64,000 nucleotides of DNA from a virus (IMGVR_UViG_3300007735_000799:32001-96000); one strand, 5' to 3'. Counted from the first letter of the stretch, positions 2,673-22,319 are shown. Notes: generated from the letters alone by a model not told the origin. Numbers and translations are program-made.

Positions 2673-5228
2673 TCATGTCCATGTAAACAATCCTTCAAGA
2701 CTACTAACTTCACGCATATGCCAACCAATCACATTTAAAATTGCATTGAGTGGTTCCTCAAATGATTTCTCAAATTGAGTATCATAATCTATGTATTTTG
2801 CTTCAAGCCCAAACTCCTTGGGAATTCCTACAGTAAAAGAAATTACTTTGTCACGAACAGGATTTGGAACACGCAGATACACATATTTAATTTTTTCACC
2901 GTCACCAATCTTTGGATATCGTTTTGAAAGATTTTTCTCACGCAACCAATGATTGTAAAGCAATGCGCCCTTAACATGTAATGGAGTAGACTTGCGATAG
3001 ATTGTTGTGTCGTCCCGATACTCCTTCAATCCGTTGCAGCCTCGCGGGAACGCAATCTCTTCCACCTTACGAGTAAAGAAATCTGTCTTAAAGGCTGCAA
3101 CATAATCTCGGAGTTCAGATTCAGTACCTTCCATGATAATTCCGATGGATTTCTTGAGAGCATCACGAACAATTTCAGGGGTACTACTCTTTGCAGTTTC
3201 AAGACCCATGATTTTAGTTTCAGGCTTACTCAACAGCACATCGTCTTCGCCCATCCAAATACTCAACATGTATCGCTTCTTGGCTGTCCAAATGCCCTTG
3301 CTAGAAATACCTTCTCGCTTCATACGCATCTTTTGAGAGTAAGCGTTCTGTTGCTCTGCAAGAGCAGCGTATTGCTTATCAATGAACGGCTGCAACACTT
3401 CGTTGCAGAACTTGTTCAAGAACTTTGTAATCTTTTGTGGATCGGTTTCTTTTGGAATCACTTGCTTCACAAGGGAACCCAATCTCAAATACACCGAATC
3501 AGTATCCGATGCAATCACATAATCTACCCCGGTTGTCTTTAGGGTTTTGTTCAAGAATTGATTCAATCCATTCTCAATCCAACGAATAGATACCTGCCCT
3601 GAAATCGTAATAGCCTCGGCAATCTCTTGATCGTAGTAACGGAAGTATTGATTGCCGCAAGCACCGAAAGCAGAGTTCAATTGAATCTTACGAACAAGTT
3701 GAAAGTTATGGAACTTGGTGATGTCAAGTTTCAGTTGGGCTTCCTGCTCAGGAGTTGGATTTACCAGTTTCTTTAAAGTGGCTTTGGCTTCCAACATTTT
3801 CTTCTTGAAGGCTTTGCGCTCTTCATACATGGTTTCCATGAGTTGCGGCAGGAAGCCCTGCGTATCCTTACGGAATGCCACACAATTACCCGCTACGCTT
3901 AGATTCTTGGCTCGCATGTTATCAAGATAATCTCTCGCGCCTGCGCCCGTGTCCGTGGGTGCGCTCGCGCCCGCGCCCGCGAGGAAATCATTTACAGAGA
4001 ACTTATTGCGAGTTCCCACATTAGTTTTGGTTTCAGGAGACAGATTGTATTGCATGATAAGATGCGGATACAGCGAGTCCAAGTCAAAACTCACCACCCA
4101 ATCGTGCGCTCCAACAATAGGATCTTTAACATACGCACCTTCAAACTTTGTTTCTTTATCCTCGGCTTCTACCTTCATGGGGATAGCAATTCGCTTCTTG
4201 GTGAGATGATGGTAGATGATGGCATCCCATGTGCGAACCTGCGAGAACACATCGTTCAAATTAACCTTGGCGGAATACGCAAGGGCTAGAGCAAGTTCCA
4301 TCAGTTTCAATTTGTTCTCAAGCATTCCCACAAGCAGGGTATCGTGGTGGTTATACTCCATGAACTTTTGAAAATCATTCTTGTAGAAGTCGGCTAGAGT
4401 TCCATCGTATTGCTTCTTGCGCTCGCCCAACTCAACCCAAACGATATGATCTAGTTTGTAGGTTTCACGGGTCACATAGGTGAACTTACGATACAGATCA
4501 AAGTAGTCTAGGGTGGCAATACCTAACAGATCATAAACCTCATTCTTCTTGTTCATCACTTCCACTTCACGAGAACGAATCTCTCGCCACGGAGAAAGAC
4601 GCATGGCTTCCTTCTCGTCAAACAGACGAGTGATGCGATTCACGATATACGGAATATCAAAGAAGTTGACATTCCATCCTGTCACGATGTCTATATCCAT
4701 TGCTTCCCATGCTGCAAGGAAGTCTCGCAACATATGCTTTTCGTCATCGTATTGAAAGCACTTGGCATCAGGAATATTAAACTCACCCAATCCAAACACC
4801 AACACCTTGTTGCCCACCTTTAAGGTAATAGCGTTTATGCGTTCGGTTGCAGTCTTGATAGACGGAAAGCCTCCCTCGCATTCCGTCTCAATATCAATAT
4901 ACGCCACCTTTAATTTGCTTGGATCGTATTCCACTTCGTTCGGGAACGCCTCACCGATATACTGATACAACCATTCGGTGTTTCCAAATAGTTCAAAGCC
5001 AACCACTCCCTTGTACTCATTGATGAACTCTTTAGCATCACGAATGGAACCAGGCTTGAATGGTTCAACATACTTGCCTTCAAGAGTCTTCCATTCGGTC
5101 TTCTTTCCCTTGGCAGGAACAAACAGAGTGGGCATAAACGGAACCTTTTCGGCTATTCGCTTTCCGTTCTCGTATCCACGATACAGAATGTTAGAACCTC
5201 TAACAGCAACATGTGTGTAGAATTTCAC
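2673..5228 (-). CDS. gp43: family B DNA polymerase (T4 gp43-like)
   Basis: ExoI DIETE, motif A SFDLDSLYP, motif B KIQLNSAFG, motif C SDTDS, KKRY, C-terminal clamp-binding LEGLF. Confidence 0.97.
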   Translation of the reverse strand: MKFYTHVAVRGSNILYRGYENGKRIAEKVPFMPTLFVPAKGKKTEWKTLEGKYVEPFKPGSIRDAKEFINEYKGVVGFELFGNTEWLYQYIGEAFPNEVEYDPSKLKVAYIDIETECEGGFPSIKTATERINAITLKVGNKVLVFGLGEFNIPDAKCFQYDDEKHMLRDFLAAWEAMDIDIVTGWNVNFFDIPYIVNRITRLFDEKEAMRLSPWREIRSREVEVMNKKNEVYDLLGIATLDYFDLYRKFTYVTRETYKLDHIVWVELGERKKQYDGTLADFYKNDFQKFMEYNHHDTLLVGMLENKLKLMELALALAYSAKVNLNDVFSQVRTWDAIIYHHLTKKRIAIPMKVEAEDKETKFEGAYVKDPIVGAHDWVVSFDLDSLYPHLIMQYNLSPETKTNVGTRNKFSVNDFLAGAGASAPTDTGAGARDYLDNMRAKNLSVAGNCVAFRKDTQGFLPQLMETMYEERKAFKKKMLEAKATLKKLVNPTPEQEAQLKLDITKFHNFQLVRKIQLNSAFGACGNQYFRYYDQEIAEAITISGQVSIRWIENGLNQFLNKTLKTTGVDYVIASDTDSVYLRLGSLVKQVIPKETDPQKITKFLNKFCNEVLQPFIDKQYAALAEQQNAYSQKMRMKREGISSKGIWTAKKRYMLSIWMGEDDVLLSKPETKIMGLETAKSSTPEIVRDALKKSIGIIMEGTESELRDYVAAFKTDFFTRKVEEIAFPRGCNGLKEYRDDTTIYRKSTPLHVKGALLYNHWLREKNLSKRYPKIGDGEKIKYVYLRVPNPVRDKVISFTVGIPKEFGLEAKYIDYDTQFEKSFEEPLNAILNVIGWHMREVSSLEGLFTWT

Positions 5229-5497
5229 TTGCCCTCTCGGTCAACCATAGCCACCCAATCCTGATGGATAAGATTGTTTCTGCCGTATCCTTGACCACGA
5301 ATCTTGGAGATATCCCACAGTACCTTGTCGCCAATCTTGACATCCTCGGTGAGTTTATCACCAACAGAAATTACCGTGCTCCAAACAAGTTGAGAGTTAA
5401 TCTTCTCGGTGTAGATAATACCTTCGGTAGTTTTCTTCTCGCCACCACCAACAGTTTGCACTTCAATCCACTTGCCAATCGGTCTCAGTTTAGTCAT
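5225..5497 (-). CDS. GroES/Cpn10-like co-chaperonin
   Basis: KLRPIGKWIEV...KTTEGII...VISVG...VKIGDKVL pattern, 90 aa. Confidence 0.75.
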   Translation of the reverse strand: MTKLRPIGKWIEVQTVGGGEKKTTEGIIYTEKINSQLVWSTVISVGDKLTEDVKIGDKVLWDISKIRGQGYGRNNLIHQDWVAMVDREGK

Positions 5498-6441
5498 GCT
5501 AAAAATCCTTGTAATGAGTTTGCTACTTCTTCACGAATTCGGTCTTCTGCAATCTTAACATACTCAGGGTTCAGTTCAGTTCCCACATAGTTTCTGCCGT
5601 TGCTCAAAGCCACCACAGCGGTTGTGCCGCTGCCAGTAAACGGATCAAGCACCGTGCCGCCAACAGGAGAACCTGCAAGCACACACGGAGTAATCAGTTC
5701 TTTAGGATACACCGCAAAGTGTGCGCCTTTGTATCCCTTGGTGTTAACCGTCCACACAGATCGCTTGTTCTTCTTGCCGTCGCCACCCCATACTCGCTCA
5801 GGTTCAAGAGCAGGATCTCTTGCTCCCTTGTCTTCAGGCTGAGTTCGGTTCTTGTTGCCTGGTGCGTGAGGAGAACTAACCGCTGCTTCCTTGATTGCTT
5901 CATGGTCATAGAAGTAGTGAGACTTCTTGGAAAACATAAAGATGTATTCGTGAGCACGAGTGCAACGGTCGGTTACGCTTTCAGGCATAGGATTCGGCTT
6001 GTGCCAAATTAGGTCTTGACGCAACCACCATCCGTCTGCTTGCAGAGCAAATGCTACACGCCACGGAATACCAATCAGATCTTTAGTCTTGAGACCCTTT
6101 TGATCTTTTCTGTTACCTGGCACAAAGTCTGACGGCATGCCTCGTTGACCACCGATAGTTTGTGGTGGAGGAGCACAGTTCTTTGCTGCCATGTAAGAAT
6201 CACCAAGATTCAACCATAGCGTTCCATCGTCACGCAAAACTCTACGAACTTCGCGGAACACTTCCACCATCTTCTGCACATACTCGTCTACAGTTTCTTC
6301 TTGACCAATTTCCGCATCGCCACCTTCATAGGAACGCAAACCAAAATACGGCGGGGAAGTTACACAGGTATGCACAGACCCTTCAGGCAGAGTCTTCATA
6401 CCTTCAATGCAATCACCTGTTATGATTTGATGTGTGTTCAC
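5494..6441 (-). CDS. N4-cytosine/N6-adenine DNA methyltransferase (beta class)
   Basis: Catalytic TSPPY before SAM-binding VLDPFTGSGTT; SPPY suggests m4C. Confidence 0.92.
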   Translation of the reverse strand: MNTHQIITGDCIEGMKTLPEGSVHTCVTSPPYFGLRSYEGGDAEIGQEETVDEYVQKMVEVFREVRRVLRDDGTLWLNLGDSYMAAKNCAPPPQTIGGQRGMPSDFVPGNRKDQKGLKTKDLIGIPWRVAFALQADGWWLRQDLIWHKPNPMPESVTDRCTRAHEYIFMFSKKSHYFYDHEAIKEAAVSSPHAPGNKNRTQPEDKGARDPALEPERVWGGDGKKNKRSVWTVNTKGYKGAHFAVYPKELITPCVLAGSPVGGTVLDPFTGSGTTAVVALSNGRNYVGTELNPEYVKIAEDRIREEVANSLQGFLA

Positions 6442-6839
6442 ACAATATCTCCATACTTGGTTCCGCGCACAAAGAACTGTTCTTCATGCCACTCAAACCC
6501 AAAGCACTCTCTAGCATACTCTATAATAATACCCTTGTCAAACTTATTGCAAGAGTAAACATCAAGTGTAATGAACCGCTTTGGCTCCATTGAGTGAATC
6601 TGAATTCCGCTCTCAATGAGTGGAACCCAACCGCTTACTCCTGCCTTGTCAGGGTACAGTTCCGTGCCGTTGTTTGTTGGAGCATGTATCACGAACGGTT
6701 GGCTCATGCGGGTCATGCCGATCTTGTCTACAACCCGCTCAAGAAAGCGGTAGTGGAGTTCCAAGTCATCGGCTGCACCGATGCGGCAGTTATACATGTC
6801 CAAATAGTAAGAGTATCCGAATGGTTTAATCTCGCTCAT
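6438..6839 (-). CDS. speD: S-adenosylmethionine decarboxylase proenzyme-like
   Basis: GVSGWVPLIES-GIQIH...LDVYSC, matches pyruvoyl E|S self-cleavage region (ESG in place of usual ESH). Confidence 0.75.
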   Translation of the reverse strand: MSEIKPFGYSYYLDMYNCRIGAADDLELHYRFLERVVDKIGMTRMSQPFVIHAPTNNGTELYPDKAGVSGWVPLIESGIQIHSMEPKRFITLDVYSCNKFDKGIIIEYARECFGFEWHEEQFFVRGTKYGDIV

Positions 6840-7774
6840 TATTTACCTCGTTGCTTTGGATACGGCTTTGGAGGATTTCTATCCTCAAACTCTCGCCGCA
6901 GTTTCTTGGTTTCTGCTTTAGTTCTGCCCAATACAAACGCATACTTGTGCTTGCTTGGCATTTGAATTTTAGTAGCCTGTTGCTGCTTTAGTTTAGACTG
7001 CTCACGCAACTGCTTCTCAACTTCCGCAGGCATGTTTTCCCACAACACCTTTTGGTCGTTGTTCCAATCCCGCTCCCACTTGATTCCCAACTCTTTGGCG
7101 TACTTCTTGTACGCACTACGCACACGAAAGAAACGGTCGCTTACAACTCTGCCTGTGTACGGATTGATGTATCGTGTTGTGGTTCCTGAATCTTGTCCCA
7201 AGTAATAGAAGTTACAAGCCTGATAGATGGTTCCCAACTCTTTAGCGGTTGGATCAGAGTACGCGGTAAACAAGCGGTACTGTGTGTTTTTCACCATCCA
7301 ACCAATAGACCACATAAGAAATGAACTTGCAAGATTCTTTGGACTCCACGACACGCAAGCCCCGCGACTAACCAAGCGTTCAATCTCTTTGGTGTTTTCG
7401 CCAAGAAGTTTAGAGAAAGCATTCGGCAGATTCATAAGAATTACCCCTGCCATGATATCTCGTCCAATCAATCCTTGTTCAGGATCGTGATAGTACGCAC
7501 CAAACCAATGTGTGGTGTACTGCGACAGATTACCTAGCCATTCGTGTCGCTTGATAAACTCGGTGGCTTCTCGCTTCTCGGCTTCGCTTGTAAGCGGCTT
7601 GAAAATGAAATCAGAAACTCGCAGTTCTCCTGCGCGTTCTTTAGACATAAGTGCTTCTTCCAAATCTTTTTCGTAATTGTTTAGCCGTATATCATACTGC
7701 CAACAATGTTCCTTATCGTAAGACTTGGAGCGTTCAACAATGTCTATATGTTCACTTTTGCTTTTAGAGTTCAC
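6839..7774 (-). CDS. Mom-like GNAT-fold DNA adenine-modification protein
   Basis: FIKRHEWLG...SRGACVSWSPKNLASSFL...YSDPTAKELGTIYQACNFYYLG resembles the Mom family YxD..GxIYQAxNxxYxG motif. Confidence 0.72.
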   Translation of the reverse strand: MNSKSKSEHIDIVERSKSYDKEHCWQYDIRLNNYEKDLEEALMSKERAGELRVSDFIFKPLTSEAEKREATEFIKRHEWLGNLSQYTTHWFGAYYHDPEQGLIGRDIMAGVILMNLPNAFSKLLGENTKEIERLVSRGACVSWSPKNLASSFLMWSIGWMVKNTQYRLFTAYSDPTAKELGTIYQACNFYYLGQDSGTTTRYINPYTGRVVSDRFFRVRSAYKKYAKELGIKWERDWNNDQKVLWENMPAEVEKQLREQSKLKQQQATKIQMPSKHKYAFVLGRTKAETKKLRREFEDRNPPKPYPKQRGK

Positions 7775-7858
7775 ACTTCACCTTAATAATTACCAACAAC
7801 ATTGCTGTTATTTACAACAGCACTACAGGATTCTACTTGGAGAATGGCATCAAGAAAC

Positions 7859-8344
7859 TTACGAGTTTCTTGTGGTATCTTTCCACGGAGAAGAGATGTA
7901 GTAAGTCTTGAGTGGTCTTGTTGGCTCTTCGTTTTTCTTGATTGGAGATTTACAGCATCCATTACCGTTGGTGCTAACAACATCAGAAGGATTGACACCA
8001 GGAACAAATAGAGGACCAGACTGCGTAGATGCTTTCTTGTCATGCAGATAAGCATACATCAAAACTGAGTAGTTGACAATATCAATTATGGTATCTTCGA
8101 AAGATTCATTTTCTACAGCCAATTTTCCAGATTCAACAAAAGATGAAAGACGACTCATCTTATCAGTCATGCGAACCAAGAATCCTTGCTCGGTGGTGCA
8201 AATGCCCATCGCTTCTACTCTTGTGAAATTTGCAAAAGGCTCTAACCCATCGTTGCCTGCGTAATCGGCATTCTTCTTACGCATCAGATTGCGACCCTTT
8301 TCACAAATCATTTCATGCATTTTTAATAAATCTTCGCGTGTCAT
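7859..8344 (-). CDS. DUF1599 / nucleotide modification associated domain 1-like protein
   Basis: KKNADYA...RMTDKMSRL...ESFEDTIIDIVNYS helical pattern; start set at MTREDLL, 2 nt after dut stop. Confidence 0.75.
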   Translation of the reverse strand: MTREDLLKMHEMICEKGRNLMRKKNADYAGNDGLEPFANFTRVEAMGICTTEQGFLVRMTDKMSRLSSFVESGKLAVENESFEDTIIDIVNYSVLMYAYLHDKKASTQSGPLFVPGVNPSDVVSTNGNGCCKSPIKKNEEPTRPLKTYYISSPWKDTTRNS

Positions 8345-8345
8345 T

Positions 8346-8882
8346 TTAAGAAACTCCAGTAGAGCCGAATCCACCTGCTCGGCTAGTCTTGGGCTGAACT
8401 CGCTCATCGGTGGGTTGGAGCGAGTATTTCAAAACAGGAATCATTTCCCCTTGACAAATTCGGTCGCCGTGGGTAATACGAACAGGAAGGTTAGACAAAT
8501 TTGTAACTGCAACCATTAATTGATCCGTATAATCCGAATCAATAACGCCTTCCGAATTGGCTAGAACTATTCCTCCCTTTACAGCCAATCCGCTGCGAGC
8601 GTGAAGGCGCACAGAATATCCCTCGGGAATGTCTAAAACAATTCCAGTAGGAATAAGAACACGAACTCCATCAGGAGGAATTATTAAAAATGGTGGGGCA
8701 TCTGAACGCTCAAATGCGGCTAGCAATCTATGATGAGAATTGTTCTTATCGTAAGCGTCTATAATTCTTGTTTTGTTGCCAAAATAGGCTTTAACATCAA
8801 AGCAAGCAGATTGCTCGGTTGCAAACGATAGGTCAAAAGAATCCAACCATAACTTGTTGTATTTTAGAGTCAAATTGTTCAT
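8346..8882 (-). CDS. dut: trimeric dUTPase
   Basis: ACFDV, ARSGLA, GVIDSDY, GDRICQ, RAGGFGSTG (motifs 1-5). Confidence 0.95.
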   Translation of the reverse strand: MNNLTLKYNKLWLDSFDLSFATEQSACFDVKAYFGNKTRIIDAYDKNNSHHRLLAAFERSDAPPFLIIPPDGVRVLIPTGIVLDIPEGYSVRLHARSGLAVKGGIVLANSEGVIDSDYTDQLMVAVTNLSNLPVRITHGDRICQGEMIPVLKYSLQPTDERVQPKTSRAGGFGSTGVS

Positions 8883-8911: not shown

Positions 8912-9346
8912 TTACCCTTCGGAATCAGGATCATAAGTTTCATAATTTGTTCGTTTTCTTCCGATATTGTATTTTGGAATTAGTTCCCAAGACTTCTTCT
9001 CACCAAACGGCAATATTTTTAAATATGAGATTGGGACTATAGGATCTTTGCTCTTTGACGGATCACACAATTTTAGTAGACCCCATTCTGCTAGAAGATT
9101 GCATATAGTGTTTCTTCTAGCCTTATCCGCATCGGGAAAGTCTGTGGGCAATCCGTCCAACATGAATAGTTCTTTAAAATGAACGACATAATACTTACCC
9201 TTCTTATGCAGAATGTGGCAAGATTGGTACAGTTTTTTCTCGGTTTTTGAGGATATTCCAATCCTCGTTAAAGTTTCTTTTATTTTAAGAAAGTTTTCTG
9301 GATTGGGTAGTTCAACTTCAATAAAAGAATCAATCAAAATACTCAT
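8912..9346 (-). CDS. regA: RegA translational repressor
   Basis: FLKIKETLTRIGI...LYQSCHILHKKGKYYVVHFKELF. Confidence 0.95.
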   Translation of the reverse strand: MSILIDSFIEVELPNPENFLKIKETLTRIGISSKTEKKLYQSCHILHKKGKYYVVHFKELFMLDGLPTDFPDADKARRNTICNLLAEWGLLKLCDPSKSKDPIVPISYLKILPFGEKKSWELIPKYNIGRKRTNYETYDPDSEG

Positions 9347-13739: not shown

Positions 13740-13811
13740 AGCCATCTGTGGGATTCGAACCCACGACCTCCAGATTACAAATCAGGTGCACTACCACTGT
13801 GCTAAGATGGC
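13740..13811 (-). tRNA. tRNA-Thr(TGT)
   Basis: Cloverleaf GCCATCT/AGATGGC, loop TTTGTAA, GTTCGAATC. Confidence 0.9.
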
Positions 13812-13816
13812 GAAAG

Positions 13817-13889
13817 TAGTCCCTATAGGATTCGAACCTACAACTTCTTCCGTGTAAAGGAAGCACTCTAGCCGTTGAGTTAAGGGACT
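13817..13889 (-). tRNA. tRNA-Val(TAC)
   Basis: AGTCCCT/AGGGACT, CTTCC-TTTACAC-GGAAG. Confidence 0.93.
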
Positions 13890-13894
13890 ATTAG

Positions 13895-13976
13895 TGTCGG
13901 TGGAGGGAGTCGAACCCACACGCCTTGCGGCAAAAGAACCTAAATCTTTCGTGTATGCCAATTTCACCACACCGAC
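13895..13976 (-). tRNA. tRNA-Leu(TAG)
   Basis: GTCGGTG/CACCGAC, AAAGA-TTTAGGT-TCTTT, long variable arm. Confidence 0.93.
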
Positions 13977-13982
13977 TATTTG

Positions 13983-14516
13983 TTACTTCTTGACCTTGGT
14001 TTTCTTTGCCTTCTTTGCTAAAGACTTCTTAACCTTGGCAACCATTTCCTTTAGTTCCGGCGGAGACATGGCATTAGTTTCCAAGAGAGCGGCTACACGA
14101 GCATCTTCCTCTTTCTCTGCCTGTGTCTCTAGGGTCTTTTCTTCGCCATCAAGTTCCTTGCAGTATTCCACAAGTGCGGCTTGACACGCTGCTTCGCTAA
14201 CAAAAGGCCCATGAAACTTTGCCCATGTTTCATCCCAAAAAATCCAACCGCCGTGCTTGGGAGAATACTCTACAGGATCGTGGCGACCAATAGCAATAAA
14301 GTTTTTCTCGGCTGCTTTAGGCTTGCCCCATTCGCACATCACCTTCTCGTTGTTCTTTATCCACATCTCAACATCAAAGTCAAACGGATAGTGCTTCAGC
14401 AAATCACGAGCAGTCTTGCGAATTGCGTCCTTGCCCATCTTGGTGTTGCTCATAAGTTCCTTCAGAAACTCTGAAGTCTTCACAACAGCCCGATAAGATT
14501 CATATGGTAGCGTCAT
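13983..14516 (-). CDS. hypothetical protein
   Basis: ORF with GGAG RBS before MTLPYES; basic C-terminus. Confidence 0.6.
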   Translation of the reverse strand: MTLPYESYRAVVKTSEFLKELMSNTKMGKDAIRKTARDLLKHYPFDFDVEMWIKNNEKVMCEWGKPKAAEKNFIAIGRHDPVEYSPKHGGWIFWDETWAKFHGPFVSEAACQAALVEYCKELDGEEKTLETQAEKEEDARVAALLETNAMSPPELKEMVAKVKKSLAKKAKKTKVKK

Positions 14517-14697
14517 TGTATAGTTTCTCCTTCCTACGAGACTGTCGCTCGTAGGCTTTGAATAGTCCTTCACTAAATCCTGCATGCTTGCCGTGACCGT
14601 ATCCTTGAGAATACGCCCAAGTATATAACTTTATTTGTGAAGCGGCGAGAGCAGAAATTCCCGAAATGATGAAAAAGATTGTTGCTATGGTTTCCAT
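14500..14697 (-). CDS. small membrane protein
   Basis: METIATIFFIISGISALAA hydrophobic start then YSQGYGHG; internal start of track ORF 14500..14850. Confidence 0.5.
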   Translation of the reverse strand: METIATIFFIISGISALAASQIKLYTWAYSQGYGHGKHAGFSEGLFKAYERQSRRKEKLYNDATI

Positions 14698-14733
14698 ATC
14701 AGTAATTAGTTTAAAACACAATCTGAACAAAAG

Positions 14734-14819
14734 TGCGAGAGGTGGGATTCGAACCCACACGCCTTTAGAGGGCAGCGGATTTTGAATCCGCCGTGTATGC
14801 CAATTCCAGCCACTCTCGC
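14734..14819 (-). tRNA. tRNA-Leu(CAA)
   Basis: GCGAGAG/CTCTCGC, GCGGA-TTCAAAA-TCCGC, long variable arm. Confidence 0.93.
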
Positions 14820-14825
14820 AAACAG

Positions 14826-14898
14826 TAGGATCGGTGGGATTCGAACCCACACTTTACGGATTTTAAATCCGTTGACTCTGCCGTTGGTCTACGATCCC
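14826..14898 (-). tRNA. tRNA-Leu(TAA), short variable loop
   Basis: GGGATCG/CGATCCT, ACGGA-TTTAAAA-TCCGT, variable region only AAAG. Confidence 0.8.
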
Positions 14899-14899
14899 A

Positions 14900-15805
14900 T
14901 TACTTTCGGACATTCGGATATTTTGTTAAAAAGTCCTCAATAGTTTTCTTTAGACCAGTCTTCAAGTCAGTAAATTTAAAATCAGGGAAGTAAGTAGTGA
15001 ACAAGGTATTGTTTGTTGGCTTTCTTATTATACCTTCAGGCTTGGTTTTGTCAAACACTAATTCGCCAGAAAAGCCAAGTTCAGAAATTATAATTTCAAC
15101 CGCTTCACGAATGCTCCACTCTTTACCTGGAGAAACAATCATCATATCAGGAGTTGAGCGTTCATCAACATGAATCATTTGTAAAATTCTACCAAGGTCT
15201 TGGGAAAATACAAATTCACGAAGAGCCTTGCCTTCACCCCAAACGGTAAAAGGTTGATTATTAATCTTTGAAAGATAGCAACGATGAATAAGACTTGGAA
15301 GAACATGACCGTTTTCCATATCGTAATTATCATTTACTCCGTAAAGATTGCAGGGAATAATACACTTTGCATTAACCATGTATTGTTCTCGCAAACTTCT
15401 TGCTCCCACTTCTAAAATTCGCTTTGCGTAAGCGTATCCGTAATTTGTGGGATGTGGTTCGCCGTTGTGAATCTGATCTTCGGTTAGTGGATAATGAGCA
15501 AACTCAGGAAAGATACAAGTAGACAACAAAAAGGTTGCTCGGTTAACTTCTCTACAAGCCTTGATGATGTTTGCATTGATAGTTAGATTCTCAACAAGAA
15601 AATCGTTGATGAACTGCTTGTTGGATTTAACTCCACCAACTTTTCCTGCACAATGAACAACATCTGTAATCTTGTGGTCACGAATGTAACTAATCAGTTG
15701 TTCATAGTTGGTTAGATTAACTTCTTTGCGAGTCGGCTTAAGACCAAAAGGAACTGAGGTTCCTACAAGTCCTGCTCCACCTGTGATTAGATAACGCTTT
15801 TCCAT
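14900..15805 (-). CDS. fcl: GDP-L-fucose synthase
   Basis: ITGGAGLVG, HCAGKVGGV, LSTCIFP, YGYAYAKR, PCNLYG, WGEGKALREF. Confidence 0.9.
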   Translation of the reverse strand: MEKRYLITGGAGLVGTSVPFGLKPTRKEVNLTNYEQLISYIRDHKITDVVHCAGKVGGVKSNKQFINDFLVENLTINANIIKACREVNRATFLLSTCIFPEFAHYPLTEDQIHNGEPHPTNYGYAYAKRILEVGARSLREQYMVNAKCIIPCNLYGVNDNYDMENGHVLPSLIHRCYLSKINNQPFTVWGEGKALREFVFSQDLGRILQMIHVDERSTPDMMIVSPGKEWSIREAVEIIISELGFSGELVFDKTKPEGIIRKPTNNTLFTTYFPDFKFTDLKTGLKKTIEDFLTKYPNVRK

Positions 15806-15812
15806 ATTTAAA

Positions 15813-15884
15813 CTGGCTCGGCTGGATTCGAACCAGCAACCTATCCGTTAACAGCGGATCGCACTACCGTTGTGCTACGAGCCA
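15813..15884 (-). tRNA. tRNA-Asn(GTT)
   Basis: TGGCTCG/CGAGCCA, ATCCG-CTGTTAA-CGGAT, G73. Confidence 0.93.
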
Positions 15885-15889
15885 CCTTT

Positions 15890-16054
15890 TTAGATTTGCT
15901 TTTCCCGCTTAATCCAAAGCGGAAGAATGCCACGATCTTCTAGTTTACGAAGAGTTTCCTTCTTCGCATTCAGCAGAAGTTCCTGACGACGAATCCTACG
16001 AGATTCATAACGACGCTTACGGCGTCTGCGAAGTTCTCTCATCTTGTCTATCAT
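15890..16054 (-). CDS. 54-aa arginine-rich basic protein (not in ORF track)
   Basis: MIDKMRELRRRRKRRYESRRIRRQELLLNAKKETLRKLEDRGILPLWIKREKQI fills gap between ORF and tRNA. Confidence 0.55.
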   Translation of the reverse strand: MIDKMRELRRRRKRRYESRRIRRQELLLNAKKETLRKLEDRGILPLWIKREKQI

Positions 16055-16652
16055 TGTTTAAACCTTTCTTCTTCATAAGATGCTTCACCCAAATTTCAGT
16101 CACAGTCATTGGATGATGAAATTCCTCAAACTTGAAACCGCTAATTGGTTCCTTGTTCTTGGTCTTGAGTGCAGTATAGATGCCGTTCAATCGGTTAGGC
16201 TTGAATTCACCAACAGGTTCTTCCTTGCCGAGACCAGGCCATGCTTCTGCTTTGGTTCCAATTACTAAACCTTGTGGTGATGCGGGCGACTTGAAGAATA
16301 TGGCATCCTGCTCATACTTCGCACCCATCTTCTTGGCAAAGCCCTTGATGGCTCCGCTCTTTGTAGCACTATCATCATCACCTATAATCATAAACGACTC
16401 TTCGGTAACACGACGCTTCTTGCCGTCACCAAGATCTTCTTCGTAAGTGCCAATCACTTTCTCAAAACCAAAACCTGCCGCACGAATATCGTTTTCCAAC
16501 TTCTTGTTGAGTCCACGATTCACCGACAGCGAATTGCTACCACGGAATGCGGTAAGCAAAGCAAACGGTCGCTTCTCAACATGTGAGAACACGCGAGACA
16601 GCGAGATTTCTGTAATCAATTCTTTGCGATAGGTTTCAATTTCTTCAGACAT
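16017..16652 (-). CDS. conserved T4-like phage protein, possible internal head protein
   Basis: LITE-ISLSR start then LLTAFRG...N..LN..L..DIR..GFG...G.YEE...EESF. Confidence 0.65.
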   Translation of the reverse strand: MSEEIETYRKELITEISLSRVFSHVEKRPFALLTAFRGSNSLSVNRGLNKKLENDIRAAGFGFEKVIGTYEEDLGDGKKRRVTEESFMIIGDDDSATKSGAIKGFAKKMGAKYEQDAIFFKSPASPQGLVIGTKAEAWPGLGKEEPVGEFKPNRLNGIYTALKTKNKEPISGFKFEEFHHPMTVTEIWVKHLMKKKGLNNDRQDERTSQTP

Positions 16653-16830
16653 TTGTGGCTCCCCTGATTTCTTCTGTGGACTGCTTTAACTCCAAGTAAA
16701 CTTTTCGTATCTCTTCAAACGCTTGCCCTGCCGTAAACTTTCCGTTCAGTTCCCATTCAACAATACGAGCAGCGCGTCTAGCAAATTCTCCAATGTTCGC
16801 ATGTGCTGCGAAGTCTTCAATATCCATCAT
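16645..16830 (-). CDS. hypothetical protein
   Basis: Internal start MMDIEDF of track ORF 16645..16959. Confidence 0.45.
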   Translation of the reverse strand: MMDIEDFAAHANIGEFARRAARIVEWELNGKFTAGQAFEEIRKVYLELKQSTEEIRGATNV

Positions 16831-16900
16831 CTTTCTCCGAATGCGACCCGTCAAACAACACGACGGCTCTGGTAAGTAAGGTATAGTGTTTAGTATACCG

Positions 16901-17035
16901 TCACTTTCCCTTCGGTGCAATTTTTTTATTTGCTTTCTTCTTTTTCTTAAAAATTGCATCCCAATTCTTTGACCATAGATCGTAATCTACCTTACGGTAT
17001 CTATCTCCCTTACCTGCTGCGTGCTTGCCGCTCAT
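16901..17035 (-). CDS. 44-aa conserved small phage protein (not in ORF track)
   Basis: MSGKHAAGKGDRYRKVDYDLWSKNWDAIFKKKKK; GKGD..R.V..NWD.IF motif recalled from aquatic T4-like phages. Confidence 0.6.
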   Translation of the reverse strand: MSGKHAAGKGDRYRKVDYDLWSKNWDAIFKKKKKANKKIAPKGK

Positions 17036-18033
17036 AACGCCTCCTGGTGGGCTGAGAAGGTTATGCTGTGGATGTTTGACCCATCATCTTGGGCTTCTCC
17101 CATAGCATCAATTATAAAAACCTTCATCTCTCCCAAATCTTTAAAATTGTGTAGAGTTCCCTTGTGATAAACTTTAAAAAATCCCACCTTTTCCAAAACA
17201 TCGCACTTGTTGATAATAAGTTCTGTGCAACCAGACAGAGTTATAGATTGAATCAGTTTATCAAGATTCAACCAATTTACCAAACGCTTTCTGCCGGTTG
17301 TGGTTCCGAACTCACCGCCTGCTTGCAGTACAGCATCAAGTTCCTTGTCATCCCACAGCGATGATGGAAACAGGGGATCGGTTCCACTCTTGGTATCGTA
17401 AATCTTAGCCACACCAATCAGTCTACTAATCTTATGTGGTGAGAAGCCAAGAGAACAAGCACCGTAAGGCATGGTTGTGCTGCTTGTGACATACGGATAA
17501 TCTCCGTGGTCAATATCTAACCAAACGCTCTGTGCTCCTTCGCACAAAATCTTTCCGCGCAACTCATCCTTCAGCAACCATTGCGAATCAAAAACATCCT
17601 TGGCTTGTTTGCCACGACGCAACATCTTGTCGGAATAGCATGGAGCAATGCCTTGCTTGGTTGTGCCAAGATAACCAAGATGCTTGGTATCGTATTCAAT
17701 ATGCTCAGGTGTAATAATATGAGCGTTCGGATGAATCTTAATGAGCGAAGTGTTAAAGCCTTCGCTGCGAAGATACCGAATCTCTTCAAAGAACTTATCA
17801 GGATTGATTACACAACCTGGCCCAATCACACATTGCTTGTCAGCAAAGATGCCAGACGGAACAAGATGAGTCTTGTATCGCTTGCCGTTTCGGTAAACAG
17901 TATGCCCCGCGTTTGGGCCACCGTTCCAACGACACACGCAATCATACTTTTCGGCAAGAGCATTGGCAATCTTGCCTTTGCCTTCGTCGCCCCAAGCAAG
18001 ACCGTAAATCACATCCGCATAATCAATCATCAT
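17032..18033 (-). CDS. purA: adenylosuccinate synthetase, short form
   Basis: AWGDEGKGK, GGPNAGHT, EGAQ..LDIDHGDYPYVTSS, EFGTTTGRKR; start set at MMIDY after tRNA-Pro. Confidence 0.92.
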   Translation of the reverse strand: MMIDYADVIYGLAWGDEGKGKIANALAEKYDCVCRWNGGPNAGHTVYRNGKRYKTHLVPSGIFADKQCVIGPGCVINPDKFFEEIRYLRSEGFNTSLIKIHPNAHIITPEHIEYDTKHLGYLGTTKQGIAPCYSDKMLRRGKQAKDVFDSQWLLKDELRGKILCEGAQSVWLDIDHGDYPYVTSSTTMPYGACSLGFSPHKISRLIGVAKIYDTKSGTDPLFPSSLWDDKELDAVLQAGGEFGTTTGRKRLVNWLNLDKLIQSITLSGCTELIINKCDVLEKVGFFKVYHKGTLHNFKDLGEMKVFIIDAMGEAQDDGSNIHSITFSAHQEAL

Positions 18034-18043
18034 AAATCTCCAG

Positions 18044-18117
18044 TCGGAGAAACAGGATTTGAACCTGCAACCTCTTGCACCCAAAGCAAGCGCACTACCA
18101 AGTTGTGCTACTCTCCG
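18044..18117 (-). tRNA. tRNA-Pro(TGG)
   Basis: CGGAGAG/TTCTCCG, CTTGC-TTTGGGT-GCAAG. Confidence 0.93.
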
Positions 18118-18121
18118 AGAA

Positions 18122-18193
18122 AGCGGGTAGAGGGATTCGAACCCTCGGCAATTGGTTTGGAAAACCAACACTCTACCACTGAGTTATACCCGC
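18122..18193 (-). tRNA. tRNA-Gly(TCC)
   Basis: GCGGGTA/TACCCGC, TTGGT-TTTCCAA-ACCAA. Confidence 0.93.
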
Positions 18194-18214
18194 GAAAAGT
18201 CCGAGCCATTATAG

Positions 18215-19273
18215 TTAGGTGAAAATATTATTGAGTTGACGGTTAACTCGGACAAATGTTGTACATTTTGGCAAGTCCTTCAGACGAGCAGCACCAACAT
18301 AAGTGCAAGCCGAACGAACTCCACCAAGAATCTGTTGAATCACTCCTGAAACAGGCCCAACAGGCTTGACAAGTACTCGCTTGCCTTCTGCTGCACGATA
18401 GGTTGCCACGCCGCCTGAATGCTTTTCCATTGCTGTAGCGGAACTCATGCCGTAGAACTCCTTGCCGTCCTCGGTTTCTTCGCCTGCGGCTTCATCGGTT
18501 CCTGCAAACATACCACCAATCATTACAAAGTCTGCGCCCGCGCCGAACGCCTTGGCTACATCACCGGGGCAGGTGCATCCGCCGTCAGACAGCACATAGC
18601 CGCCTAGCCCGTGTGCAGCATCAGCACACTCCATGATGCATGACAACTGCGGGTAGCCCACACCAGCAACCTTGCGTGTCGTGCAGACTGATCCTGGCCC
18701 AATTCCAATCTTGACAATGTTTGCACCTGCAATAATCAGGGCTTCAGTCATTTCTCGCGTCACCACATTGCCTGCAATTAGAATGTGATCGGGAAACAAC
18801 CCACGAATGGTACGAACATAATTCACAAACTTTTCCGTGTACCCGTTAGCCACATCAATACAGATAAACTTGATGGACTTGTGGCGGTTGAGAATTCGTT
18901 CAGCCTTTTGAATCTCTTGCATACTAGAATTAGCATCGCCCATGCCCAAGGTGTACACCACATTAGGCGACCAATTAACATGAGAGGTTAACCAGTCGGT
19001 CATAAAGGTATCCCATTCGGCTTCGGTGTAATACTTATGAACACCGCATAGAGCATTGAATTCTGCTAGACTCTTAGCCATCTCAAATGTGCCAACTGTA
19101 TCCATGTTGGCAGCAACAACAGGAACGCCTGTCCACTCTTGTTCCATGTTGTCTGGAAGTTTAAATTTAAATGTTCGTTCAACATCAACCTTGCTACGAC
19201 TATCCAAATTGCTTCGCTTTGGACGAATAAGAACATCTGCAAAATCAAGTTTCACATCATCTTCAATTTTCAT
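18215..19273 (-). CDS. guaC: GMP reductase
   Basis: [55 protein letters not shown]; no CBS domains. Confidence 0.92.
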
Positions 19274-19279
19274 GGGTTT

Positions 19280-20269
19280 TCACTTTATGAAAGGTGCGTA
19301 ATCCGAATCAAACATCATGCGAGCAAGAGTAGGCATATCACACTTTGGTTCCCAACTCAATACTCGCTTTGCTTTGGCGGGATTGCCCAACAGATACGGA
19401 ACTTCGTTTGGTCGGAACAGTCTTGGATCAATCTCCACATACTTATTGTAGTCTCCAAGTCCTGCGTAGTCAAATACAACTTCCAAGAATTCACGAACAG
19501 TATGAGTTCGGTTGGTGGCAATCACATAATCATCAGGGATGCTTTGCTGAAGCATCAACCACATGGCTTCCACATAATCTCCAGCAAATCCCCAGTCTCG
19601 CTTAGAGTCAAGATTTCCAAGGAACAGTTTGTTTTGCAAACCTGCCTTGATCTTGGCTGCTGCCATAGTGATCTTTCTAGTCACAAAAGTTTCTCCACGA
19701 CGAGGACTTTCGTGATTGAACAGAATACCTGATGAAGCGTGAAGTTCGTATGCGTTACGATACACTCGGGTCATGTGATGAGCGTGAAGTTTAGCAACAG
19801 CATACGGAGATACCGGCATCATTCGGCTAGTTTCAGTATAACCATGCTTATCGTAATCATCACTATCACCGTACATCTCGGACGAAGACGCCTGATAGTA
19901 ACGAGTAGCAGGACTCACAGTTCGTATCGCTTCAAGAATCTTAAGACTGCCTTGAGCAATACCATCTGAAGTATACTCAGGCACATCAAACGAAACTGCA
20001 ACATGTGACTGAGCAGCGATATTGTAAAACTCGTTCGGCTGATACTTGTCCAACAGATGCACAATCGCCGCTCCGTCTGAGAGGTCATAGTAGTGCATCT
20101 TGAATTGTGAGTTTGAGATTGGATTGTCGTAGATGTGATCTACTCGTCCAGTATTGATAGACGAAGTTCTACGCTTCAAGCCTACCACATAGTAACCTTT
20201 GGAAATTAAAAGGTCAGCAAGGTAAGAACCGTCCTGACCGTTAACACCAGTTATCATCGCTGTCTTCAT
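19280..20269 (-). CDS. gmd: GDP-mannose 4,6-dehydratase
   Basis: ITGVNGQDGSYLA, AAQSHV, YQASSSEMYG, SPYAVAK, LFNHESPRRGETFVTRKI. Confidence 0.96.
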   Translation of the reverse strand: MKTAMITGVNGQDGSYLADLLISKGYYVVGLKRRTSSINTGRVDHIYDNPISNSQFKMHYYDLSDGAAIVHLLDKYQPNEFYNIAAQSHVAVSFDVPEYTSDGIAQGSLKILEAIRTVSPATRYYQASSSEMYGDSDDYDKHGYTETSRMMPVSPYAVAKLHAHHMTRVYRNAYELHASSGILFNHESPRRGETFVTRKITMAAAKIKAGLQNKLFLGNLDSKRDWGFAGDYVEAMWLMLQQSIPDDYVIATNRTHTVREFLEVVFDYAGLGDYNKYVEIDPRLFRPNEVPYLLGNPAKAKRVLSWEPKCDMPTLARMMFDSDYAPFIK

Positions 20270-20313
20270 AGTTTCCTCATGGTTAAAAGATCATTTAGTG
20301 ACGAGTTTATTTA

Positions 20314-20419
20314 GACGGGGATGCGGGAATCGAACCCGCCGCTAGTGAATTATCTATAATCATTTCATCAGCGATTCTACCGATGGCTGTTACTCCTTCA
20401 ACCAAAGAACTCTCCCCGT
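20314..20419 (-). ncRNA. atypical tRNA-like RNA, 106 nt
   Basis: ACGGGGA/TCCCCGT acceptor-like stem and perfect T-arm GCGGG-TTCGATT-CCCGC, but non-canonical interior. Confidence 0.5.
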
Positions 20420-20550
20420 AAAGAAAGGCGGTAGACCTGTGGCTTTGCTAGTCGCGCCTAACAAAGCCTGTAACTACGCCTCCAGACTGAACCACATATG
20501 TGCGGGCAGTTCGTGGTTTTTGGTGAGATTAACGGTCGCCACCAAGGTTT
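20420..20550 (-). ncRNA. structured non-coding segment
   Basis: Stems GGCTTTGTTAG/CTAGCAAAGCC, GGCGTAG/CTACCGCC, AACCAC/GTGGTT, TTGGTG/CACCAA; no ORF. Confidence 0.4.
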
Positions 20551-20554
20551 TAAG

Positions 20555-20626
20555 TGACCCCAACGGGACTCGAACCCGTGTCAGAAGAGTGAAAGTCTTC
20601 GATCCTTGCCGCTAGACGATGGGGCC
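20555..20626 (-). tRNA. tRNA-Glu(TTC)
   Basis: GGCCCCA/TGGGGTC, GAAGA-CTTTCAC-TCTTC. Confidence 0.93.
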
Positions 20627-20645
20627 AAGTAACTTCAACTAGAGT

Positions 20646-20673
20646 ATTATATCGTGCAAACCATCCCTGTCAA
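20646..20673 (-). promoter_or_regulatory. sigma70-type promoter for tRNA-Glu and downstream RNAs
   Basis: TTGACA-16 nt-TATAAT. Confidence 0.7.
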
Positions 20674-20677
20674 GGGA

Positions 20678-21040
20678 TTAAGACAAACGAAGCAGATATT
20701 TTGTCTGATTCAGAGCAGCAAGCATCTCGTCACGAATATTCAAAAGATCGGTGTCAGCCGTCTGATCCAACTTTGTTGGTAGTTCGTGAGTCAAGTAGTA
20801 GATGGCAGCGTTAATCACACCCAAGGAGTTTGAATCCTTGTAGTTGTTAACATTGAAACTAAAACTTGGGTTGCCTAAAGTGTTGCCGTATTTGCCTGTG
20901 TGAACTTCCACAAACTGGTCAACCAATCCATCAAGATCTTCATAAGCCTTTCCTAAAGCCTTATGCTCGGCATAAGACCTGGTTTGCCAGTGAAGAACTC
21001 GTAATTGAGATTGAAGTTGTAGAAAGAATGTTACGCACAT
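20678..21040 (-). CDS. ferritin/Dps-like four-helix protein (DUF5856-like)
   Basis: LHWQTRSYAEHKALGKAYEDLDGLVDQFVE...IRDEML. Confidence 0.7.
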   Translation of the reverse strand: MCVTFFLQLQSQLRVLHWQTRSYAEHKALGKAYEDLDGLVDQFVEVHTGKYGNTLGNPSFSFNVNNYKDSNSLGVINAAIYYLTHELPTKLDQTADTDLLNIRDEMLAALNQTKYLLRLS

Positions 21041-21064
21041 GGTCTAGTATATAGCATTCCGAAG

Positions 21065-21149
21065 CGGGCAGAGAAGGATTCGAACCCTCGGAGGCATTCA
21101 CCTCGGCGGTTTAGTAAACCGCTGCATTAGACCACTCTGCCATCTGCCC
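21065..21149 (-). tRNA. tRNA-Ser(ACT)
   Basis: GGGCAGA/TCTGCCC, G73, long arm, GCGGT-TTACTAA-ACCGC. Confidence 0.88.
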
Positions 21150-21154
21150 AAAAG

Positions 21155-21227
21155 TGACGAAGATTGGAATTGAACCAATGACTTATTCCGTATGAAAGAA
21201 TTGTTCTACCATCTGAACTACTTCGTC
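21155..21227 (-). tRNA. tRNA-Met/Ile2(CAT), non-initiator
   Basis: GACGAAG/CTTCGTC, ATTCT-TTCATAC-GGAAT; paired 1-72 and no triple GC stem. Confidence 0.85.
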
Positions 21228-21256
21228 AAAGCGTAGTGTGGGAATTACCCAAAAAG

Positions 21257-21337
21257 TGCGTCGTGTAGGACTCGAACCTACGAAGTCAAAGACAACAGAT
21301 TTACAGTCTGTCCCAGTTGCCGCTTTGGTAACGACGC
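21257..21337 (-). tRNA. tRNA-Tyr(GTA)
   Basis: GCGTCGT/ACGACGC, ACAGA-CTGTAAA-TCTGT, long arm. Confidence 0.93.
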
Positions 21338-21341
21338 TTAA

Positions 21342-21429
21342 CGGGCAGGGAGGGATTCGAACCCCCGGTAGGCTATTCACCTACTGATGCTTTCAAGGCA
21401 ACCGCGATAGACCACTCTGCCACCTGCCC
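21342..21429 (-). tRNA. tRNA-Ser(TGA)
   Basis: GGGCAGG/CCTGCCC, loop CTTGAAA, long arm, G73. Confidence 0.9.
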
Positions 21430-21440
21430 AAATTTTAAAA

Positions 21441-21656
21441 TTACTTAGTGTCTTCCGTCAAAAAAATCTTGCTTTCATTCATGCCTTGTGCAGCATTGAA
21501 AACAATCTTCTTTTCTGCTTCTGCATATCCTTGACGATACTCTGACCAATACGGTTGAGATTGGGCTTGAGTTACAGATTTGTCTGCTCGCCCTGCCATA
21601 CGATCCGAGTATCCGTCTTTGAATCCTTGTCCAGGAATATAATTGATTGTATTCAT
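21441..21656 (-). CDS. small hypothetical protein
   Basis: GGAG RBS then MNTINY; GFKDGYSD...YRQGY motif. Confidence 0.5.
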   Translation of the reverse strand: MNTINYIPGQGFKDGYSDRMAGRADKSVTQAQSQPYWSEYRQGYAEAEKKIVFNAAQGMNESKIFLTEDTK

Positions 21657-21672
21657 TGTGATCTCCGTAAAA

Positions 21673-21745
21673 TGGATCGAAGAGGACTCGAACCTCCAAC
21701 CCATGCCTTGCAAAGGCATTGTTCTCCCAATTGAACTATCGACCC
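21673..21745 (-). tRNA. tRNA-Ala(TGC)
   Basis: GGGTCGA/TCGATCC with G3:U70, ATGCC-TTTGCAA-GGCAT; 5' end overlaps last codons of upstream ORF. Confidence 0.93.
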
Positions 21746-21945
21746 GTAAAATCTATCCCGTCAATCTTTGTGAAAGAGGCTGCGTAATCATTGGCTCGCT
21801 TCCAAAGATCGCCGTCAATCTCTTTCACATACTCAGCAAACTTCAATCCAAACAACATGATAGCCTGATGATATCGCTTAACCGTTTCAGGATCACGAAT
21901 CTCATTGCCGTCATCGTCTGTAGGATAGAAGTTGTACTTTTCCAT
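21736..21945 (-). CDS. small hypothetical protein
   Basis: GGAG RBS then MEKYNF. Confidence 0.5.
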   Translation of the reverse strand: MEKYNFYPTDDDGNEIRDPETVKRYHQAIMLFGLKFAEYVKEIDGDLWKRANDYAASFTKIDGIDFTGR

Positions 21946-21959
21946 ATTTGTCTCCAAAA

Positions 21960-22030: not shown

Positions 22031-22058
22031 GGTGCATTCCTGCACTAGACGCTCGCTA

Positions 22059-22271: not shown

Positions 22272-22319
22272 TTTTTTCTCCTTATGTAAAAGTTAATTGG
22301 GGATGGCGATCCCCTGCAA

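Follow-up and report, generated by a model that had tools for sequence, protein, structure and literature searches.

The DNA considered here, referred to as the window, is a stretch of 64,000 nucleotides of a viral contig (IMGVR_UViG_3300007735_000799, positions 32001-96000), and the subject of this report is the run of genes lying in it between regA and gp43, above all three of them, which encode a Mom-like protein, a SpeD-like protein and a DNA methyltransferase. Genes were called by listing open reading frames (ORFs) and by Pfam and PHROGs profile searches, and the identities observed were, all on the minus strand and in this order, regA, dut, Nmad1-like, Mom-like, SpeD-like, methyltransferase, GroES-like and gp43. 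The region is limited upstream by the gene of the regA translational repressor (8912..9346; Pfam Translat_reg, E 2.9e-38), followed by the dUTPase gene, dut (8346..8882; Pfam dUTPase, E 3.2e-20), and by a DUF1599/Nmad1-like gene (7859..8407; Pfam 24.1 bits against a cut-off of 25, phrog_1485 E 3.8e-17); all three belong to the backbone, the last one standing outside the insert. The boundary between backbone and insert is an 85-nt intergenic gap with a stem-loop (7775..7858), beyond which are found the genes for a Mom-like GNAT of 311 residues, belonging to a 'long Mom' subfamily (6839..7774; Pfam Mom E 3.5e-13, phrog_1384 E 2.7e-16), for a SpeD-like protein of 133 residues with the AdoMet_dc fold, belonging to an 'ESG' clade (6438..6839; Pfam AdoMet_dc E 6.9e-14, 52.5 bits against a cut-off of 25), and for a beta-class N6/N4 DNA methyltransferase of 315 residues with an SPPY motif (5494..6441; Pfam N6_N4_Mtase E 2.6e-53). 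The gene of a GroES/gp31-like co-chaperonin (5225..5497; Pfam Cpn10 E 1.5e-6, phrog_3188) then leads to gp43, the family-B DNA polymerase, a backbone gene and the downstream limit of the slot (2673..5228; phrog_262 E 2.4e-303).

An earlier note on this DNA had placed dut and the DUF1599-like, Mom-like, SpeD-like and SPPY methyltransferase genes between regA and gp43, the last three overlapping, and both statements were borne out: ORFs, Pfam and PHROGs agree on the layout, the Mom stop and the SpeD start share 1 nt (TAATG), and the SpeD stop and the methyltransferase start share 4 nt (GTGA). The 85-nt gap between the Nmad1-like and Mom-like genes carries an AAGGTGA ribosome-binding site before the GTG start of the latter, as well as the stem-loop GCTGTTGTAAATAACAGC (7822-7803, minus strand), which could serve to terminate transcription or as a site of RNA processing. 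A scan for sigma-70 promoters gave a score no better than on shuffled sequence.

The contig from which the window was taken is a 119-kb entry of IMG/VR, with a G+C content of 42%, no terminal repeat and a completeness of 52% according to CheckV. Between its gp43 and that of T4-like cyanophages the identity is about 50%, and none of 50,697 phage records matched the region in a megablast search; the source phage is therefore an uncultured, distant T4-like myovirus. The majority of the related contigs in IMG/VR come from lake and other aquatic metagenomes, and the habitat is probably freshwater.

The arrangement of the region in related phages was studied in about 190 loci. From IMG/VR, 61 loci were fetched via the Mom-like protein, 80 via the SpeD-like protein and 78 via Nmad1, and all eleven proteins of the neighbourhood were mapped onto them by tblastn. 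The sample ascertained through Nmad1 is independent of the cassette content, and provided 64 non-redundant loci with both Nmad1 and gp43. In 48 of these, neither Mom nor SpeD nor the methyltransferase is found between the two genes, which are separated by a gap of about zero to 2.2 kb. In 8/64 the methyltransferase is the sole cassette gene, no other single insert being as common in the slot, while Mom plus methyltransferase and SpeD plus methyltransferase were each found once; the three genes occur together in 6/64, and all six loci are closely related to the window, with gp43 identities of 82-100%. Furthermore, the sample ascertained through Mom or SpeD gave 49 non-redundant complete slots, containing SpeD and methyltransferase (21), all three genes (12), Mom only (5), Mom and SpeD (3) or Mom and methyltransferase (2), the slot being empty in the other 6, with Mom or SpeD elsewhere.

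The order of the genes is no more constant than their presence, at least four orders having been found: Mom-SpeD-methyltransferase in the window, SpeD-Mom-methyltransferase (locus L022), methyltransferase-Mom (L033) and GroES-SpeD-...-Mom (L083). SpeD occurs without the methyltransferase in loci L026, L083-L088, L110, L116-L121, L125, L128, L133 and L138. The content of the slot ranges from 0 to about 7 kb, and its flanks, dut-Nmad1 on one side and gp43 on the other, are conserved. Moreover, regA is conserved upstream of dut, dut lies directly upstream of Nmad1 in most relatives (in a few there is a gap of 1-2 kb, and in some dut was not detected), and a GroES-like gene is found directly upstream of gp43 in the window and in most of the cassette-bearing relatives.

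Hyperplastic regions of T4-like genomes are variable accessory-gene slots situated between conserved core modules. In the loci analysed here, the backbone is formed by dut-Nmad1 and gp43, the junction of Nmad1 with gp43 constitutes such a hyperplastic slot, and Mom, SpeD and methyltransferase assort independently and in shuffled order; since every subset occurs, the order is shuffled and the backbone exists without the insert, each of the three insert genes is acquired or lost independently of the other two. The earlier note had proposed a survey of gene neighbourhoods as a check of co-conservation, and its outcome, with all subsets occurring and 48 of the 64 backbones without insert, goes against the joint pathway that it had imagined. 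We know of no earlier description of the Nmad1|gp43 slot or of its recurrent trio, and the junction is thus a newly delineated hot-spot.

The Mom-like protein scores 50.1 bits against the Pfam Mom family (PF25680, cut-off 27.1), and its AlphaFold2 (AF2) model, computed with 33 relatives, reaches a mean predicted local distance difference test (pLDDT) of 92.7. Among PDB structures, the top Foldseek matches of this model are the two chains of Mu Mom (8bv8_A, E 6e-8; 8bv8_B, E 2.7e-7), with TM-scores normalised by target of 0.61-0.71, other GNATs matching at 1e-4 or weaker; the comparison of profiles by hhalign points to the same protein (probability 95.9%, E 6e-9). The profile alignment pairs R137 with R111 of Mu Mom, S150 with S124, D174 with D149 and Y184 with Y159; R137 is invariant and S150 nearly invariant across the 33 relatives, among which D174 and Y184 are nearly invariant as well. 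Thus, four of the five core catalytic residues of Mu Mom are kept. In the Mom family, a helix-turn-helix-like insertion between late beta strands is required for activity, and a candidate counterpart in the model is a helical insert (helices 213-228 and 250-266) between strands 200-203 and 268-271.

The role of Mu Mom itself has recently been revised. The enzyme moves glycine from Gly-tRNA(Gly) to the N6 of adenine in double-stranded DNA, the product rearranges on the base to N6-carbamoylmethyl-adenine, the residues R111, S124, D149 and R151 are essential, and Mom is self-sufficient, no other phage protein being required (PMC13219725, Nat Commun 2026). The acetyl-CoA-dependent reaction on which the earlier note had relied is therefore outdated, the donor being Gly-tRNA(Gly) and the enzyme acting alone (PMC13219725). 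Considering the homology in fold and residues, the Mom-like protein of the window is probably a stand-alone, Mom-type, aminoacyl-tRNA-dependent modifier of DNA adenine, a reading in which both donor and target are taken over from Mu Mom by analogy. Sixteen tRNA genes lie at 13740-23473 of the window on the minus strand, including a tRNA-Gly(UCC) at 18122-18193; the presence of the latter is not evidence of its use by the Mom-like enzyme.

The long Mom-like subfamily is large, comprising 2,429 metagenomic clusters at E<=1e-3 and 731 representatives at the 50% clustering level. Members with 45-63% identity are also encoded by jumbo phages, on contigs of 200-350 kb, and by Vibrio phage 501E54-1, in both cases without SpeD and without the cassette methyltransferase, and clustering of the neighbouring genes revealed no family common to the Mom-like copies beyond one closely related lineage. 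In seven larger metagenomic proteins (P0259, P0260, P0264, P0267, P0273, P0301 and P0310), the long Mom-like domain forms the C-terminal part, the N-terminal parts being integrase, DUF7487, DUF559 (Vsr-like), ParB-HTH or LAGLIDADG-like domains; such fusions to DNA-binding or homing-endonuclease-like domains are consistent with a DNA substrate.

As regards the SpeD-like protein, the catalytic triad is complete: Ser77 (the predicted pyruvoyl residue), His82 (+5) and Cys97 (+20) are invariant in the alignments. Nevertheless, its score against the AdoMet decarboxylase (AdoMetDC) equivalog TIGR03330 of NCBIfam is 36.9 bits, below the cut-off of 75.65, and at positions +1 and +8, where the canonical sequences aligned have His and Pro, it has Gly and Glu. 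The second of these changes belongs to an HSMEP motif, with Glu at +8 and Pro at +9 in the ungapped stretch between His82 and Cys97; the Pro of the H-x-x-P-E motif has been stated to be invariant in bona fide AdoMetDCs (PMC10407285). Work of the Michael laboratory has shown pyruvoyl-dependent decarboxylation of ornithine or arginine to be the activity of many phage 'SpeD' proteins (PMC9992855, PMC10407285). The four residues that mark the ornithine decarboxylases of the SpeDC type (Gln, Thr, Phe and Tyr, in the context Q-L-I-E-T-S...G-H-F...Y-x-D-x-F-S-C, as read from the alignment of fusion proteins in Fig. S5 of PMC10407285) are absent, being replaced by Val(-5), Glu(-1), Ser(+6) and Thr(+14).

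Pairwise comparisons point in the same direction. The SpeD-like protein gives 68 bits with the non-canonical speH_1 product of Microcystis phage MaAM05 and 28 bits with the canonical speH_2 product, and the canonical SpeDs of P-SSM4, Syn1 and Vampirovibrio chlorellavorus (SpeD1) give about 30 and at most 33 bits. The two MaAM05 proteins, speH_1 and speH_2, are near-identical to SpeD2 and SpeD1 of V. chlorellavorus, respectively, of which SpeD1 restores spermidine and is bona fide, while SpeD2 is a proven arginine decarboxylase (PMC10407285). As a side observation, the speH_2-speH_1-speE-speB cluster of MaAM05 (MW495066, our locus L222, 2486-5264) has its counterpart in V. chlorellavorus (L274, 4486-7255), and the speH_2/speH_1 proteins match the V. 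chlorellavorus pair almost letter for letter; either the genes were transferred very recently or the MaAM05 record contains foreign DNA.

Cellular relatives were collected by scanning the genomes of 185,579 species, which gave 80 SpeD-like relatives. The largest set, 72 'ESH' proteins with 28-37% identity, is followed directly by the agmatinase gene speB in about 50 of the 72 cases. A small 'ESG' group with 40-46% identity comes from Uhrbacteria, Saccharibacteria, Nomurabacteria, Bacteroidota and two unclassified metagenome-assembled genomes (MAGs), and no speB, speE or other polyamine gene was found near any of its six cellular loci. Instead, in these loci (L226-L231, with the match at about 5001-5400) conserved clusters with sensor, kinase, methyltransferase or GNAT families were observed, the neighbours being seven-transmembrane (7TM) sensor-like proteins with no Pfam match, 7TM histidine kinases, NNMT/PNMT-like N-methyltransferases and FeeM/autoinducer-synthase-like GNATs. 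Such a context suggests the synthesis of a signalling amine, and the cellular cluster may be a module for making and sensing it; neither the sensor family (u283) nor the other cellular ESG neighbours were found in the phage contig. A further 6,970-bp record encoding an 83%-identical SpeD-like protein was found in a Lake Mendota Cyanobium MAG (JBIPMZ010000397, L225); it is probably a phage contig binned in that MAG, and its binning is a weak hint to Cyanobium as host.

In a maximum-likelihood tree, the phage SpeD-like proteins and the cellular ESG proteins form one clade (support 100/98, with an uncertain root and some long branches), which stands apart from the group holding the validated arginine decarboxylase and the canonical SpeDs, the deeper order being uncertain. 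Within the phages, SpeD-like proteins are 83-91% identical where gp43 is only about 53% identical, and their third-codon positions are 51-70% identical, that is, close to saturated. The conservation of the protein over near-saturated third positions therefore argues for strong purifying selection and a working enzyme, and, as far as the sequence allows, the SpeD-like enzyme is very probably active. Recent horizontal transfer was considered as a cause of the 83-95% SpeD identity at a gp43 identity of about 53% and was rejected, since third-position identity is only 51-70% and purifying selection explains most of it.

The statement that SpeD makes decarboxylated SAM (dcSAM, from S-adenosylmethionine, SAM), on which the earlier note had built, is thus unsafe for this protein: at 36.9 against 75.65 bits it falls outside the AdoMetDC equivalog, it lies outside the canonical and validated clades, and it probably does not make decarboxylated SAM. 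The odds on its substrate may be put, roughly, at 15% for SAM, 40% for arginine or ornithine and 45% for another amino acid. A sequence search of the PDB with the SpeD-like protein gave a single marginal match (2iii, E 0.077), and a search of the Atlas gave nothing beyond generic 'AdoMet decarboxylase family' clusters.

The methyltransferase shows SPPY (motif IV) at residues 29-32 and DPFTGSG (motif I) near residue 266, in the order of the beta class; among solved structures, its closest relatives are TTHA0409 (2zie, also with SPPY), CcrM and N4-cytosine methyltransferases. It probably makes N4-methylcytosine (m4C) or N6-methyladenine (m6A), two products that sequence alone does not separate. 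Among the backbone genes, dut is ordinary (NCBIfam PRK00601, 102.1 bits, just under the cut-off of 103). The conserved core of the Nmad1-like protein covers residues 22-128 (about 105 residues, 33 columns being invariant across 22 relatives), and the AF2 model of this all-alpha protein is a helical bundle with a core pLDDT of about 80. A profile search of the PDB found nothing, and fold searches (Foldseek, VIA-align) returned matches at the level of helical bundles, with AF_0060, YpjD, DCTPP1 and MazG scattered among unrelated helical proteins; the sole match over the whole domain, AF_0060 (2p06), is weak (Z 6.8). A MazG-like nucleoside triphosphate (NTP) pyrophosphatase is thus a lead rather than a finding. 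Nmad1 is constantly paired with dut and gp43, whether modification genes are present or not, which speaks for a place in the nucleotide/replication backbone and not in the insert. The C-terminal 54 residues of Nmad1 (window 7859-7990) form a Cys-containing, predicted-disordered tail, present in the close kin of the window and absent from most relatives.

Other genes that a joint pathway might involve were looked for along the whole contig. No spermidine synthase (Spermine_synth) gene was found in its 119 kb, at 52% completeness, so that the absence which the earlier note had reported for the window extends to the contig. Likewise, no homologue of ThyA or of a hydroxymethylase was found in the 119 kb (about half a genome), while a flavin-dependent thymidylate synthase, ThyX, is encoded outside the window (G000:C1:2756-3352, E 4e-49). 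With ThyX present and ThyA and hydroxymethylase absent, there is no sign of a hydroxymethyl-pyrimidine route, and alpha-putrescinyl-thymine-type chemistry fed by the decarboxylase was discarded as a candidate on these grounds. With half of the genome missing, all these absences are weak evidence.

Taken together, the best explanation, to which we give a probability of about 0.72, is that the insert consists of three independent, stand-alone modules in a hyperplastic slot, and not of one pathway to a new DNA base. The backbone would be made up of regA-dut-Nmad1 and (GroES)-gp43, and the slot between Nmad1 and gp43 would collect accessory genes. In the first module, the aminoacyl donor of the Mom-like GNAT is most likely a charged tRNA, and the enzyme would put the aminoacyl group, after replication and with no helper enzyme, on the N6 of adenine in double-stranded DNA, thus blocking restriction. 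The second module would be a self-processing pyruvoyl decarboxylase of the ESG clade, which most likely converts an amino acid, and not SAM, to an amine, the product being a polyamine precursor or another amine. The third would be an ordinary SAM-dependent beta-class DNA methyltransferase, which may protect against restriction by forming m4C or m6A. That the phage modifies its DNA is very likely. To this extent the DNA-modification reading of the earlier note survives, with an aminoacyl-derived adenine adduct (from Mom homology) and m4C or m6A (from the methyltransferase motifs) both probable; the part that fails is the joint pathway, its genes not being co-conserved. A T4-like cyanomyovirus with both a mom homologue and speD was reported in 2025, the two genes not being described as linked (PMC12801897).

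Several observations weigh against this explanation. In the window phage, the Mom-like, SpeD-like and methyltransferase genes are translationally coupled, and SpeD adjoins the methyltransferase in 33 of the 36 SpeD-bearing slots, so that a functional link could be hidden. The contig is about half a genome, and partner genes such as speE could lie elsewhere. As regards the Mom-like enzyme, R151 of Mu Mom is not kept (T176, in a variable column, takes its place) and the position of R154 is a nearly invariant Glu (E179) in the Mom-like family; owing to these two changes, the donor or the product may differ from that of Mu Mom.

Several rival explanations must be weighed against that of three independent modules. 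The one advanced by the earlier note joins dut, Nmad1, Mom, SpeD and methyltransferase in a single hypermodification pathway, with dcSAM from SpeD providing an aminopropyl group for the base, followed by acylation by Mom (or the reverse). The contiguity of the genes, with the last three overlapping, the presence of all three in the close kin of the window and the lack of a spermidine synthase in the contig would fit it. Nevertheless, we regard it as very improbable: the genes are not co-conserved, every subset occurring in shuffled order; Nmad1 and dut are backbone, found without the others in 48 of 64 relatives; Mom requires just Gly-tRNA and DNA (PMC13219725); and the decarboxylase falls outside both the AdoMetDC equivalog and the canonical clade. 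On chemical grounds, moreover, a pyruvoyl alpha-decarboxylase would need a free alpha-amino acid as substrate, and neither an N6-aminoacyl nor a carbamoylmethyl adduct provides one. A smaller association, in which decarboxylase and methyltransferase form a functional pair (dcSAM serving as cofactor, or the amine product being methylated) and Mom is an independent passenger, seems hardly more probable. It draws on the methyltransferase immediately following SpeD in the 33/36 slots mentioned, and on two cellular genomes (L226 and L229) in which an ESG-type decarboxylase abuts a methyltransferase, albeit of the unrelated NNMT/PNMT family. Adjacency is, however, expected from position alone in a small shared insertion slot; the methyltransferase stands alone in 8 of the 64 unbiased loci and elsewhere accompanies Mom without SpeD; many loci (L026, L083-L088, L110 and others) have SpeD without it; and its motifs are those of canonical DNA methyltransferases, which are also its closest solved relatives.

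The SpeD-like gene could also be a bona fide AdoMetDC, an auxiliary metabolic gene comparable to that of cyanophage S-PM2, boosting spermidine with no relation to DNA modification; host SpeE could then act as the aminopropyltransferase for its product. Membership of Pfam AdoMet_dc and the intact triad are in agreement with this; AdoMetDC genes are the commonest polyamine genes in phages and usually stand alone, and the validated AdoMetDC of phage phiN3 falls in a non-canonical clade, so that the sequence rules are not absolute (PMC9992855). Against it stand the score of 36.9 bits under the TIGR03330 cut-off of 75.65, the at most 33 bits with canonical SpeDs against 68 bits with the paralogue matching a proven arginine decarboxylase, the lack of the His (+1) and Pro (+8) of all canonical sequences aligned, and the placement in a separate clade whose cellular members are not beside speE; we consider it unlikely, if less so than the two preceding schemes. 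A more speculative idea, of low probability, is that the ESG clade is a new functional class of pyruvoyl decarboxylase, its product being an amine other than dcSAM or a classical polyamine precursor. If true, freshwater T4-like phages would carry an ESG decarboxylase, kept by very strong purifying selection, to make or mimic a signalling amine during infection.

With three independent modules as the preferred reading, the story of a five-gene pathway to an exotic base, by aminopropylation and then acylation, is removed, as the genes are not co-conserved and their order is shuffled, and simpler, testable claims take its place. Two points are of moderate interest. The long Mom subfamily is very abundant, in T4-like as well as in jumbo phages, and probably puts an aminoacyl-derived group on adenine unaided, the changed essential residue in its active site meaning that another donor or another adduct may apply. 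The ESG decarboxylase clade lies apart from every validated activity and, in freshwater phages, is under high constraint; it is well suited to a search for its substrate and is the most interesting loose end. Moreover, the label 'SAM decarboxylase' is unsafe for small AdoMet_dc genes of phages, and the Nmad1|gp43 junction could be mined for more anti-defence or metabolic genes.

Finally, the elements of the locus may be compared with known systems. The slot of the window resembles the hyperplastic regions of T4-like phages in its conserved flanks, variable content and shuffled order. The methyltransferase shares with TTHA0409 (2ZIE), CcrM (6PBD) and an N4C methyltransferase (8S9M) the order of motif IV (SPPY) followed by motif I (FxGxG), but its central target-recognition region (about residues 85-215) is without a close solved relative. 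With Mu Mom (PDB 8BV8), the Mom-like protein has in common the GNAT fold, a helical insert that may be of the Mom type and the C-terminal ...PYPK tail, and in both cases a single gene without a conserved partner is concerned; it differs in its length, greater by about 70 residues, in an N-terminal extension where a CxQ motif is conserved and in the larger size of its insert, and the identity is only 13%. Cyanophage SpeDs (S-PM2, P-SSM4 and Syn1), which are bona fide AdoMetDCs, are, like the gene of the window, small stand-alone Pfam AdoMet_dc genes of T4-like phages, but they have ESH...HTWPE where the window has ESG...HSMEP, the similarity is of about 30 bits, and they are located elsewhere in the genome (adjoining uvsY in P-SSM4). 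The nearest functionally characterised relatives are the SpeDA proteins, such as V. chlorellavorus SpeD2 (WP_181385235; 31% identity, 68 bits; PMC10407285), with which the SpeD-like protein shares the Class 1b AdoMet_dc fold, the +5/+20 spacing of the triad and an extra loop before the GxSG strand, whereas it has ESG in place of ESH, sits in a separate clade and has cellular kin that do not lie beside speB or speE.

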